A stretch of 9,121 bases of DNA from a virus (lineage: Duplodnaviria; Heunggongvirae; Uroviricota; Caudoviricetes). The notes below the pieces were generated by a model. It ran no database searches. It was given only the letters and a program-made list of their open reading frames with translations, and was not told the DNA's origin. Positions 1 to 7,202 of the stretch are shown here, one piece after another. Both the position numbers and the translations under genes were made by a program. Each line of letters begins with the position of its first letter. Positions within the stretch are counted from its first letter, which is position 1. Location of the stretch: IMG/VR virus record IMGVR_UViG_2645727991_000010, positions 1 to 9,121 of that record, one strand, 5' to 3'.

Positions 1-3000
1 CACTATGGGTATGCGCCCCGGTGTTATTCGTGGATTTAGTGCCGTAATCAAACGACGATGTGGTTTTCGTCCCCAAATCCGTACTGGATGCGCTGGCGCT
101 GTGGGTATGCGATTTAATGCCGTCCTGTTCCTGAGACAATACGGCCCGACCACTGGCAGGTTTGCCCTTAATCGTCCAGCCACGCATATCAGGGATCACG
201 CCTGACGGATAAGCGGCTGCAAGTTTCGGGTAAGCAGATTTGTCAAAAGTCTGCCCCTGCATCAGGGCATAACCAGACGGAACGGTATCTGATGGCCACG
301 GGATTGGTGCGCCGACTGGGTAGCTTTCTGGTGGAAGATTTTTCGAGGTATAAACTTCTGCCCAGTCTTCCTCAAAACCATAACCGTCTCTTGAAGAACG
401 GTAGAACAGACCACCATTTCTGTAATGCGCCTTCATCTGCAAGGTCCGGCAACTTCCGACTCCGGTATAGAAGTTAACCAGAATATAGCTGTCGCCAGAG
501 CGGGTGACATTGTAAGCACCTGATTCGGCATTCCAGGGAACGCCACCATCCGCATCGGCATATGTATCCGTTGCCCTTCTGGCAAAAGCAGCCACATGCG
601 CGGCGGTTAAAGTAATATCTCTGGAACCATCAAACTCAACACCAGAAACCCGTCTTGGCGTTTGCAGCTTTGTTGCTGTTAATGCATTACCGTTCAGACT
701 TGCGGACAGTTTGGTTCCAATAACCAGTTCGCCGGTTGCGTTATCAATAGCAAACGGTCTTAATGTATTCCAGCTACCATAAACATCACCTTGATTGGTA
801 AGCAGCAGGTAAGTTTTAGCGCCATCATTACGCCATAATGCCCCATACTCCCCACCTATCATTCGAATCTGATTACCACCACGCGCTACAATTTCGTCTG
901 TGGCAAAAAGTTTTTTGCACGACAAATTATCGTTAACGATTAACGAATGAGACTCATAAAAACCACGCCCACTCTTAAAATCAAGGATAACGTCCGCCGC
1001 GATACATTCAGTCGCTGGATTTGTTGCCCCAAACTTATAGGTCGTATCATTAACAACGAGATCAGCACCAGGTGCGGATATTGACAGGCCATCTTCGATA
1101 AACGCAAAAACAGGGAAAGCAGCGCCATCAACATAGAACACAGAGCGCAAATCATCGCCCTTATTACTCATCATTATTGAGTGGATGGCTCGTTCATTGT
1201 TTTGATATTGCCAGAACATTCCATAAGCATAACGCCCCCTGTCAGTCCAGCCACCAGGCATAACAAATCCGTTAAACTCGCAGTTATTCATCGGATCGCC
1301 TGCGGTTCGCGTTGCCGTGGTGATAATGACCCTTGATGCCAGTTCGCTTACTGAGCCAGCAGAACGCATAACAACAACAGGGTAATATTTTCCAGATGTT
1401 GCACCTGCAGGAGCGTTAACCCGCACATAACGCATACCACGCTTATCAGCAAAGTCTGTTTTACTGACCGCGTTAATGTTGTTCAGGAAGCGTCCCTTAT
1501 CGGGTATATCAGCGCCGTTCTGGTCTTTCTGCAGACGTTTCTCTGCATTGTCATAGGCTGATTTTACTGCCTTTGGCGTTGCCGCCAGCGTTTCAGACGT
1601 ACTGTTGGTCGCACTGCTGAGCTGTACTATCCCCTTTTTCGTCGTGCTCGCATCCTCAAGCGCCACGGCGGATGCAATATCCTCTGCCCGTTTTGCCGCT
1701 GTCTCGGCGCGCGTTGCCGCGGATTCCGCCGTACTTTTGCTCTGTGCTGCCGCCGTCGCACTGCCAGCTGCCTCTGTCGCCTTCGTGGATGCTGTCGTGG
1801 CGCTGCCCTTCGCTGCTGACGCCTGTCTGGTCGCCTCATCTTTTGAAGCAGACGCCGATGATGCCGATGACGCCGCCGAACTGGCTGACGATGCGGCAGC
1901 CGTTTTTGAGGATTCTGCGCTGGTTTCCGACGCTTTCGCGTTCGTTTCGGATGTCTTCGCTGCGGAAGCAGAACTCGCTGCTGCGCTGGCCTGTTCAGTG
2001 GCTTCGCCAGCCTTCGTTGTGGCTGTTGAAGCGGATGATGCGGCGCTTTCTGCCGATTTTCCGGCGGCGGTGGCACTGGCTGAGGCCTGCCCGGCACTTG
2101 TTGACGCGGCGCTGGCAGATGATGCAGCCGCTGTTTTTGAGCCTGCCGCAGCTGAGGCGCTCTGTCCCGCTGCCGTCTCAGAAGACTTAGCGTTCGTCTC
2201 GGACGTTTTTGCCGCCTTCGCGGAATTTCCTGCCGCCGTTGCCGAGGAAGTTGCGCTACTGGCGCTCGAGGATGCGTTCGTTTCTGATGATTTCGCTGCC
2301 TCTTTTGAGGCCGCCGCATCCCGGGCTGAGGTGGCAGCTTCTGACGCTTTCGTGGTCGCGGTGGATGCAGAAGTGGCTGCTGATTGTTGTGACGCTGCAG
2401 CATTCGTTTCTGACGTTTTCGCCGCACCGGCACTGGTAGCCGCCGCGCTTTTTGAGGACTCTGCAGCGGCAGCACTTTTTGAGGCTTCAGTGGCCTTTGT
2501 TGATGCCGTTCCTGCGCTGGAAGACGCTGACTGAGCCGACGACGCGGCCTGTCCGGCTGACGTGCTGGCTGCACGTGCTGAATCTGCAGCATCAGTCGCA
2601 CGGGTTGCCGCCTCACTGGCAGATGTGCTGGCATCACTGGCTGACTTCTTCGCGGCTGCCGTGTTCTGTGCCACCACGGACGCGTTACGCGCCACCTCTT
2701 CCACCATCAGTTCAAAACGACGCAGTGCCTCCGGACGGGCATCATCCTCCGTCATGGCACCGAGAAAATCATTCAGCGTACCGGGTTGAGAATCTTCATA
2801 CACGGTGATGGTCCCGGCATGTGACGGCGGGAATCCCTCCACCAACAGAATAACGCTGTACTGACCGTACTCAACGTCCATGCTGTAACGCCCGGCTTCA
2901 TCCGGATTTTCTGAGGCCAGCGTGTTCACCACCACAGTGGTACTGTTACGTTTTGCTTTCAGCTGGATTGTGCAGTTCTGTACCGGTTTTCCTGTGCCGT

Positions 3001-3031
3001 CTTTCAGTACACCTGAAATCTTTACTGCCAT
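1..3031 (-). CDS. stf: Side tail fibre protein (lambda Stf / Rac StfR-like), 3'-truncated by the window edge; ATG at 3029-3031, open frame through position 2 (at least 1010 codons)
   Basis: Not in the ORF track because there is no in-frame stop inside the window; the absence of any listed minus-strand ORF in this frame implies it is open throughout. My translation from 3031 gives [26 protein letters not shown]..., which I recognise as the lambdoid side-tail-fibre N-terminal domain. I translated the last 360 nt codon by codon: ...[104 protein letters not shown], matching the distal lambda Stf region as I recall it. Upstream in-frame stop at 3071-3073. Preceded by GGGG/GGTG 5-8 nt upstream of the ATG. 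Confidence 0.88.
1650..2700 (-). repeat. Degenerate in-frame Ala/Ser/Thr-rich repeat tract encoding the fibre shaft of Stf; recurring peptide unit ~AKTSETNA / SKSAAA
   Basis: Recurring nucleotide motif on the plus strand, gcgttcgtttc(g/t)ga(c/t)g, at about 1936-1955, 2190-2210, 2276-2290 and 2400-2420. Very high GC (about 67% in 1741-1800). Spawns long spurious ORFs in all other frames (1605-2534 +, 1627-2637 -, 1672-2190 +, 2452-2808 +). Confidence 0.6.
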
Positions 3032-3040
3032 ATTCACCCC

Positions 3041-3069
3041 ACAAAAAAGCCCGCCTGAACCGGCGGGCT
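3041..3069 (-). terminator. Rho-independent terminator downstream of lom (minus-strand transcript)
   Basis: Stem 3048-3055 (agcccgcc) pairs with 3062-3069 (ggcgggct), loop 3056-3061. On the minus strand the stem is followed by UUUUU (plus-strand A-run 3043-3047). Sits 27 nt after the lom stop and about 10 nt before the stf ATG. Confidence 0.7.
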
Positions 3070-3095
3070 GTCATAACACTGTGTTACCTGGCTAA

Positions 3096-3695
3096 TCAGA
3101 ATTTATAACCAACACCCACGATGAACCCGTCAGTGCGCCAGTCACCACTGCCGGAGCCTTCATAAGCGACATCAATGGCCACGGATTCGGTCGGGTTAAA
3201 CTGCACGCCAGCCCCCCACGCCAGAGACGTGTTGCTGTGGCGACCGTCATCACTTCCGGTCAGCACATCGTGCGTTTTCCCCTTGTTGTCAGTTACGCGA
3301 AGATAATCCCCGGAGAAAGTCGACACACGGCTGTAAGCCACGCCTGCCATCGCATACGCGCTGAACCATTCATTCACGCGTACAGACGGCCCCGCCATCA
3401 CGCTGAACCAGCGGTTACGCACGGAATCTTCATGCCAGCGGGTATCGCTGTAATGGGTCAGCTGGCGATTCTTGTCTCCTGCATAGCTGAATGACGTAAC
3501 CAGCCCCAGTGTGTCCGTAAACTCATAACGGTATTTCACGTTAATCCCGTTCAGATCATCACTGCCGGGAACGTTCGTCCGGGCATGAAGATACCCAGCG
3601 CTCAGCGTGGACTGATGTTCAGACGCCCATGCAGGCGCACCGGATACGGCCAGACAAATGGCTGCGGACAAAATGGCGGCATAAAGTTTACGCAT
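3096..3695 (-). CDS. lom: Outer-membrane beta-barrel protein Lom (Ail/Lom/PagC family), 199 aa
   Basis: ORF-track translation has a Sec signal peptide (MRKLYAAILSAAICLAVSGAPAWA, AxA cleavage site), alternating hydrophobic beta-strand pattern and C-terminal aromatic residue (…VGYKF) typical of small OMP barrels. Recognised as lambda Lom. Position between J and stf as in lambda. RBS gagagg upstream of the ATG at 3693-3695. Confidence 0.93.
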   Translation of the reverse strand: MRKLYAAILSAAICLAVSGAPAWASEHQSTLSAGYLHARTNVPGSDDLNGINVKYRYEFTDTLGLVTSFSYAGDKNRQLTHYSDTRWHEDSVRNRWFSVMAGPSVRVNEWFSAYAMAGVAYSRVSTFSGDYLRVTDNKGKTHDVLTGSDDGRHSNTSLAWGAGVQFNPTESVAIDVAYEGSGSGDWRTDGFIVGVGYKF

Positions 3696-3716
3696 AATTA
3701 CCTCTCGCTTTTCTGC

Positions 3717-3743
3717 AATAAAAAAGGCGTCATTTCTGACGCC
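3717..3743 (-). terminator. Rho-independent terminator immediately downstream of J (minus-strand transcript)
   Basis: Stem 3726-3732 (ggcgtca) pairs with 3737-3743 (tgacgcc), loop tttc. On the minus strand it is followed by UUUUUUAUU (plus-strand 3717-3725 aataaaaaa). Lies 19 nt after the J stop (3762-3764). Confidence 0.75.
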
Positions 3744-3761
3744 CGTTCTGGGTTATAAAAT

Positions 3762-7163
<3,402 letters not shown>

Positions 7164-7181
7164 TCACGCTCCATAACGACA

Positions 7182-7202
7182 AAACCGCCCGGGGGGCGGT
7201 TT
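7182..7202 (-). promoter_or_regulatory. GC-rich stem-loop in the I-J intergenic spacer, terminator-like on the coding strand
   Basis: Plus strand aaaccgccc (7182-7190) / ggg / gggcggttt (7194-7202): 9-bp stem, 3-nt loop. On the minus-strand RNA it is followed by UUUUGUCGUU and then the J Shine-Dalgarno (GGAG) and ATG. Function not established. Confidence 0.35.

Follow-up and report, generated by a model that had tools for sequence, protein, structure and literature searches.

In the stretch of DNA analysed here (9,121 nucleotides, referred to as the window) the outer-membrane protein gene lom is flanked by two canonical Rho-independent terminator signatures, both co-oriented with the operon. 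Only the second of these is part of the optional DNA that carries lom; the first, lying between J and lom, is shown by alignment with lom-less phages to be an element of the J/stf backbone, and the cassette itself is without a recognisable promoter. We consider it probable that lom is made mainly by Q-antiterminated late transcription, and that polymerase not modified by Q is stopped at the terminators of the prophage, so that lom is expressed there weakly at best. What the analysis contributes is the placing of the upstream terminator in the backbone by the boundaries of the indel, which also leave the cassette without a promoter region, a modest addition to a familiar genetic arrangement.

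Gene order and gene products

The list of open reading frames and the sequence of the 9.1-kb window give the order J-lom-stf, the whole set being on the minus strand (Table 1), and the window is the tail end of the late operon (..I-J-lom-stf..) of a lambda-like E. coli prophage. J matches the Pfam families Ig_J, Phage-tail_3, FNIII-A_GpJ, Ig_GpJ_C and Phage_Tail_Tip with E-values of 1e-34 to 1e-43, while the matches of stf are to phage_tail_N (9e-72), Gp34_trimer and Collar; the SD-like GGGGTGA of stf is found immediately 3' of the lom terminator. The segment 2900-3960, which spans lom and both of its spacers, has 97-98% identity to several temperate E. coli and Stx phages and 99.9% identity to prophages of complete E. 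coli chromosomes. A match covering at least 80% of this segment is present in 3806 of 5426 complete E. coli genomes (~70%), and among the genomes with any match to it the median is two places per genome.

The assignment of lom to the Ail/Lom outer-membrane proteins, which had been proposed in an earlier note made from the sequence, is borne out by a full-length match to PF06316 (Ail_Lom), with residues 1-199 on profile positions 1-199 at E = 1e-121 and 404 bits, compared to a cut-off of 23. Inspection of the translation by eye gives an N-terminal Sec signal peptide, MRKLYAAILSAAICLAVSGAPAWA, followed by SEHQ, and a C-terminus, ...VGVGYKF, ending in the aromatic residue typical of beta-barrel outer-membrane proteins. 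As to non-coding RNA, when the full 9.1 kb were compared with Rfam at E <= 1, no known RNA family was returned in the spacers, and a match to isrG inside stf was set aside as sub-threshold (19 bits, the gathering score being 100).

Table 1. Coordinates of the genes, the lom cassette and the terminator-like elements in the window
Feature	Position	Strand	Basis or detail
stf (side tail fibre), ATG 3031-3029	1..3031	-	open for at least 1010 aa; exits window at left edge
Intrinsic terminator signature after lom, within lom cassette	3041..3069	-	stem 3069-3062 / 3055-3048, loop GGTTCA, tail TTTTTTGT
Optional lom cassette, ~673 bp	3044..3716	-	presence/absence alignment; both joints in or beside T-tracts, slide ~2 nt
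lom (199 aa, Ail/Lom family outer-membrane beta-barrel protein)	3096..3695	-	Pfam PF06316 Ail_Lom
lom leader GCAGAAAAGCGAGAGGTAATT, 21 nt, SD GAGAGG at 3706-3701	3696..3716	-	one end of cassette
Intrinsic terminator signature after J	3717..3744	-	stem 3744-3737 / 3732-3725, loop GAAA, tail TTTTTTATT
J (tail tip attachment / host specificity protein, 1132 aa)	3762..7160	-	ORF; stop TGA 3764-3762
Third terminator-like hairpin, I/J spacer	7170..7199	-	CCGCCCCCCGGGCGG (7199-7185) + TTTTGTCGTT; d = 17.1

Two terminator signatures flank lom

On the coding strand the spacer after J reads TGA-N17-GGGCGTCA-GAAA-TGACGCCT-TTTTTATT, the stem (3744-3725) starting 17 nt past the J stop and comprising 8 pairs, of which 5 are G-C, with the tail TTTTTTATT ending at 3717. 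Between lom and stf the sequence is TGA-N26-AGCCCGCC-GGTTCA-GGCGGGCT-TTTTTGT; here the stem (3069-3048) starts 26 nt past the lom stop and has 8 pairs, 7 of them G-C, and the tail TTTTTTGT extends to 3041, 9 nt ahead of the stf ATG. In both elements the T-tails abut the stems, and by inspection the reverse strands are without T-rich tails. The coordinates proposed in the earlier note, 3717-3743 and 3041-3069, are right to within one base, as is its estimate of about 21 nt between the upstream terminator and the lom ATG (3716-3696, 21 nt).

Free-energy calculation, which the same note had named as the check that might expose the hairpins as weak, gives -11.4 kcal/mol for the bare stem-loop after J and -16.0 kcal/mol for that after lom, and these are not weak. 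In a 51-nt context the post-J element is folded by RNAfold at -14.7 kcal/mol (z = -3.7, with 0 of 200 shuffles as good), and for the post-lom element the same 8-pair hairpin appears in both the MFE and the centroid structures. A d'Aubenton-Carafa-type score (d, after d'Aubenton-Carafa et al. 1990), used comparatively against shuffles rather than absolutely, is 30.8 for the post-J element and 42.8 for the post-lom element, the latter being the top terminator score of the window.

One question then is whether hairpins followed by T-tracts could occur here by chance. A lax consensus scan of the window does return 14 terminator-like sites where 9.2 are expected, and weak matches of this kind are common. 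The post-J and post-lom sites, however, rank as the first two of the 14, and sites with d of at least 30, of which there are 2, occur on average 0.025 times in 40 dinucleotide-preserving shuffles of the window. Moreover, lom has no short spacers on its flanks other than the two that these sites occupy, both sites face the same way as the genes, and both compensatory substitutions and conservation are found among relatives, so that a chance origin has a negligible probability and is regarded as refuted. The strong co-oriented terminator signatures of hairpin and U-tract type claimed in the earlier note are thereby confirmed.

For the comparison with relatives lom loci were gathered from IMG/VR and from GTDB genomes, and flanks were taken for 106 of them, including 85 with a Lom at least 90% identical to that of the window. 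Among these 85 loci d exceeds 0 for the post-J element in 82 and for the post-lom element in all 85, and uninterrupted runs of six T right after the stems are kept in nearly all loci. The post-J stem occurs among relatives as GGGCGTC/GACGCC, GGGCACC/GGTGCC, GGGCGCC/GGCGCC, TGGCGTC/GACGCC and GGGCACCT/AGGTGCC, with a Citrobacter version GAGCGCT/GGCGCT. When 21 distinct variants of this stem are aligned 98.2% of cells are paired, with both-side changes in 4 of the 8 pairs and 14 compensatory cells, and neither the observed pairing nor the covariation score is matched by any of 500 column shuffles, figures which, since the variants are kin, are not to be read as probabilities. Sliding the partner columns reduces pairing to only 35-61%, and the six-T run after the stem is invariant over the 21 variants. 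Variation of this kind is the pattern that selection for the stem would give. The post-lom stem has few variants; the lambda version has another loop and a G-U wobble, and in the Citrobacter relative the lom-distal stem is kept with a poor T-tract.

Hairpins at successive gene junctions

The hairpin in the I/J spacer (Table 1) is the sole further site in the window, on either strand, with d above 0. In the coding strand of lambda between 10.0 and 23.5 kb the top three sites are likewise those at I/J, J/lom and lom/stf, with d values of 18.6, 9.0 and 40.4, respectively. Because the I/J hairpin exists and lambda carries all three, a hairpin followed by a T-tract is something that the gene junctions in this region of the lambdoid late operon have in common, and it is not specific to lom. 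The proposal that the pair of terminators marks lom as a moron consequently loses its footing, the more so as the post-J terminator is kept in phages without lom.

The presence of hairpins at three successive junctions, I/J, J/lom and lom/stf, could also be understood if their main role lay in the processing or stability of the RNA, or in a partial attenuation that sets the ratio J : lom : stf in the late transcript. The J/stf hairpin kept in lom-less phages, which is able to act only on the J-to-stf transition, is consistent with such a role, and so is the Citrobacter stem with its poor T-tract. Against this, the conserved six-T runs after the stems are a signature of termination and not of a stabilising stem-loop alone. 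We therefore regard it as improbable that processing or attenuation is the principal function of the hairpins, although a role of this sort is compatible with the late transcription of lom past terminators that we favour, the two not being mutually exclusive.

An optional cassette in a J/stf backbone

A composite query consisting of the last 400 nt of J and the first 400 nt of stf retrieves phages in which the two halves are separated by ~60 nt as against ~730, including 4A7, mEp460_4F5, PhiR63_2, Lambda_ev245 and Lambda_ev066. Four of these were aligned, 4A7 (LR595864), PhiR63_2 (PV340574), Lambda_ev245 (LR597648) and mEp460_4F5 (LR595868), and the annotation of all four has a tail-fibre gene directly after J. 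The order in the alignment is the J stop, ATTTTATAACCCAGATAC, GGGCGCCAGAAATGGCGCC, TTTTTTATT and then TGTGGAGTGAATATG-stf without a gap, the J-proximal terminator running straight into the ribosome-binding site of stf. The lom-less phages thus resemble the window in having the same type of J-proximal hairpin (GGGCGCC/GGCGCC or GGGCACC/GGTGCC), the T-tract and the stf start, and differ from it in that the 673-bp cassette is missing and a single terminator is left between J and stf. Since they keep the same terminator joined straight to the stf start, the alignments assign the post-J terminator to the J/stf backbone, outside the lom cassette.

The exact empty junction, GCCTTTTTTATT joined to TGTGGAGTGAATATG, is present in 60 IMG/VR contigs with 11 flank variants, the filled junction is present in at least 120, and close relatives of Lom are encoded in at least 597 IMG/VR stretches. 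That lom is extra DNA in the late operon, as the earlier note had it, is accordingly upheld both by the 673-bp indel relative to lom-less phages and by the 60 empty junctions. Its description as self-contained does not survive: the cassette brings just the 21-nt leader, the open reading frame and the downstream terminator, the upstream terminator being part of the backbone. More precisely, the content of the cassette is the leader GCAGAAAAGCGAGAGGTAATT with its SD sequence, lom, a further 26 nt and, as far as its T-tract, the lom terminator. Nearly all loci that have this lom allele share the leader unchanged, irrespective of the J 3' end that precedes it, and lom-less phages are without it. 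A compositional mark of foreign origin was sought in lom by comparing its GC content (0.557) with that of the window (0.555), J (0.564) and the first 600 nt of stf (0.568), and none was found.

The promoter question

The principal alternative is that lom is indeed a self-contained moron and a lysogenic-conversion gene. Its own promoter, lying across the terminator or the J 3' end, would then drive independent transcription in the lysogen, and a terminator on either side would insulate it. Such a unit would accord with the presence/absence polymorphism of lom and with its possession of a terminator. The cassette defined by the indel, however, holds only 21 nt ahead of the ATG, and this is too short for a promoter. 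A σ70 consensus scan found no site near lom, and over the 300 nt upstream of lom the best weight-matrix score was 5.2, with the -10 element lying ~250 nt upstream of the ATG within J; scores of 8-9.5 are reached by intragenic sites in other parts of the window. On both types of scan, then, no site above background is found within this distance, in agreement with the earlier note, whose author could discern no convincing -35/-10 pair.

Two further candidates were examined and rejected. TTTATT-17-AATTAT, the sole candidate downstream of the hairpin, has a -10 element that overlaps the lom ATG. TTATAAC(CC), which is conserved between the J stop and the hairpin, is without the final T of the -10 hexamer, would fire into the terminator and is found equally in lom-less phages.

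A promoter within J is also difficult to reconcile with the distribution of the lom allele. One allele (97-99% identity) is found behind at least two unrelated J 3' ends, GATCTGCTGGTTGTGGTGATGAA... and GTACGGTGATTGTGACCAAAAAAGC..., and therefore no J-internal promoter is linked to it. The existence of the upstream terminator in the absence of lom and the lack of a GC anomaly likewise tell against a moron with its own promoter. The cassette, in short, has no recognisable promoter, although a weak, activator-dependent or alternative-sigma promoter may lie beyond the reach of consensus scans; no mapped start of lom transcription came up in searches of the literature.

Comparison with lambda and phi24B

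Lambda (NC_001416, 15.4-19.7 kb) has the same order as the window, J-lom-stf(orf-401), with hairpins and T-tracts at I/J (15466-15479), J/lom (18920-18935) and lom/stf (19613-19632). Identity between the two is ~90% over the final ~100 nt of lom and on through its terminator and the stf start, whereas the 5' two-thirds of lom are diverged, the Lom proteins being ~46% identical, and the J C-terminus differs. The lambda J/lom hairpin is of unrelated sequence and is weaker, with 6 pairs, -9.0 kcal/mol and d = 9 compared to -11.4 kcal/mol and 30.8 in the window. The window is thus the already known J-lom-stf arrangement of lambda with another lom allele and a stronger J terminator.

Between the hairpin and the lom ATG lambda has the -10-like elements TATTAT/TATAAA, with scores of 3.2-3.4 and poor -35 elements; in the allele of the window the corresponding sequence reads TATTGC. 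Lambda lom and bor are listed among the genes expressed from the prophage, Lom is cited as a moron product in PMC3594210, and expression of lambda lom from the repressed prophage has been repeatedly reported, although in one array study lom was undetected in lambda lysogens. If lambda lom is expressed from the prophage as reported, it follows that a promoter exists in lambda despite the same layout. Two papers that cite Liu 2013 (PMC12366544 and PMC9836094) describe a dramatic late rise of lambda Lom during infection, and with these secondary reports the late-transcript account of lom agrees.

Expression data for the short-tailed Stx phage phi24B (HM208303) might also seem to favour a promoter proper to lom, as lom of phi24B is reportedly expressed constitutively, without coupling to the regulation of the phage and alike in lysogens and in induced cells. 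This phage resembles the window in having, in its late/tail region, an Ail/Lom gene that is followed by an intrinsic terminator, ACCCGCTGTGATGGCGGGT TTTTTATT. Its Lom, however, is longer (244 aa) and 41% identical to that of the window, the gene is located elsewhere than between J and stf, and it is preceded by an AT-rich spacer of ~90 nt that has no upstream terminator and could accommodate a promoter. The lower identity, the different site and the terminator-free AT-rich spacer mean that phi24B expression is not transferable to lom of the window, and as support for its constitutive expression it was set aside as coming from a different allele in a different context. Taking the evidence from both phages together with that from the cassette, we find an independently transcribed lom with its own promoter rather unlikely for the allele considered here.

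Probable late transcription of lom

In lambda, transcripts from pR' stop at tR' unless Q modifies the polymerase, and Q-modified polymerase then ignores terminators. The promoter itself is constitutively active and its transcription is terminated in lysogeny, the late genes requiring antitermination (PMC7547250). Because stf lies downstream of both terminators flanking lom, late transcription must read through the two of them, and the read-through under Q proposed in the earlier note is, by analogy with Q in lambda, the likely means.

During lytic growth Q-modified RNA polymerase starting from pR' would pass the I/J, J/lom and lom/stf terminators, both Q and pR' being encoded outside the window, and J, lom and the downstream stf/tfa would then all share a single late transcript. 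As long as the prophage is repressed, polymerase without the Q modification would be expected to halt at the hairpins. Stray transcripts, whether begun within J or ahead of it, would in this way be kept out of lom and stf, and transcripts starting at lom would be kept out of stf. Any lom product made from this allele in the prophage state would presumably derive either from leakage through the terminator or from a weak promoter, non-consensus in sequence, that overlaps the tail of the terminator, and its level would be expected to be low.

Is lom a moron?

Morons in the sense defined for HK97 and HK022 (Juhala et al. 2000; summarised in PMC3594210) share several properties with the lom cassette, which consists of extra late-operon DNA absent from related phages, has its own factor-independent terminator (3069-3041) inside the indel and encodes a host-interaction protein. 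It differs from them in that no promoter is recognisable in or beside it, that the GC content of lom equals that of its surroundings instead of being distinct and that the upstream terminator lies outside the insert. Of the features of a moron, extra DNA and a terminator are hence observed, an own promoter is not demonstrated and a differing composition is absent; expression in the lysogen with benefit to the host is a trait reported for lambda Lom, apart from the array study mentioned above. Were lom a self-contained moron after all, this would merely restate textbook lambda biology.

A more general reading, which we put forward only tentatively, is that lom at the J/stf site is a promoterless late-operon cassette with a mainly lytic job rather than a true lysogenic-conversion unit, and that the T-tracts act as microhomology joints for the gain, loss and duplication of cassettes. 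For lambda Lom it was proposed in 2025 that the protein acts late in infection, for example by stopping progeny from adsorbing to infected or lysing cells, and the boundaries of a promoterless cassette fit this suggestion of a late-acting Lom. Caution is in order whenever lom is found in a prophage, as such a gene is not automatically expressed in the lysogen, nor is it automatically a factor for adhesion or serum resistance and hence for virulence. With the arrangement occurring in ~70% of complete E. coli genomes, and often in multiple copies, the timing of lom expression, once clear, would bear on the annotation of prophage 'virulence genes'.

Sequence elements between I, J and lom

The late operon carries, besides the terminators that follow J and lom, a third terminator-like hairpin in the I/J spacer (see the table below), the counterpart of which in lambda (NC_001416) is found at 15466-15479 as CCGCCTGCGGGCGG followed by TTTTGTC. 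This hairpin lies within the essential tail-gene block, and late transcription must therefore read through it.

Sequence elements outside the coding regions of I, J and lom (d, a d'Aubenton-Carafa-type terminator score, is used comparatively)
Feature	Position in window	Strand	Sequence	d
Terminator-like hairpin, I/J spacer	7170-7199	minus	CCGCCCCCCGGGCGG + TTTTGTCGTT	17.1
Motif between J stop codon and J-proximal hairpin	3751-3759		TTATAACCC	

The short motif preceding the J-proximal hairpin is kept at homologous positions in the loci L002-L005 and L006-L116, both behind differing J 3' ends and in the lom-less phages, the relatives in which J is joined to stf. Unlike the window, neither lambda, between the J stop and the hairpin, nor the Citrobacter relative conserves it. 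As a -10 element the motif was rejected, being a poor match, and transcription fired from it would run into the J terminator.

Mosaicism and rearrangement around lom

In comparison with lambda, the 5' two-thirds of lom are only 30-68% identical (in 50-nt bins), whereas the last ~100 nt of the gene (lambda 19480-19585, window 3096-3200) are 84-92% identical, as are the terminator after lom and the start of stf. The gene is a mosaic relative to lambda, which points to a recombination joint within it. The stf gene (1-3031, minus strand), which has Gp34_trimer and Collar domains, is intact as far as the window reaches: its reading frame meets no stop codon there and spans at least 1010 codons. The annotation of lambda PaPa (NC_001416) divides the tail-fibre region into two ORFs, orf-401 and orf-314.

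In the Citrobacter meridianamericanus locus L093, a G+C-rich stem (GCCCGC-TTCCCG-GCGGGC) is retained 3' of lom and is followed by ATCTTATGG in place of the T-run, giving, on the comparative scale, d = -11.6; termination at this site may be weak.

Another locus, L221 (IMGVR_UViG_2671180353_000009), carries at 4200-6450 a tandem duplication of a C-terminal J fragment, the J terminator and lom. The gene lom is complete in both copies (4310-4909 and 5806-6405), and between them lies a 241-aa ORF (5013-5738), the 3' end of which matches the last ~50 nt of the contig's own J gene. This duplication suggests unequal recombination in the J-lom region.

At two IMG/VR loci (L007 and L041) the lom allele of the window is preceded by different upstream DNA; the break cuts into the left stem arm of the J terminator at one locus and lies 20 nt upstream of the lom ATG at the other. 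These breaks are probably due to rearrangements or insertions by which the upstream terminator is removed.

Lambda-type lom in unrelated assemblies

Lambda-type lom, the product of which is 46% identical to Lom of the window, was matched in genome contigs (L097-L108 and similar loci) from assemblies labelled Amycolatopsis, Neobacillus, Kitasatospora, Bradyrhizobium, Pseudomonas, Shewanella, Paenibacillus and others. Among these contigs, several match the lambda genome in length (~48.4-48.5 kb), and the coverage values given in most of the contig names are low; the occurrences look like contaminating lambda DNA.
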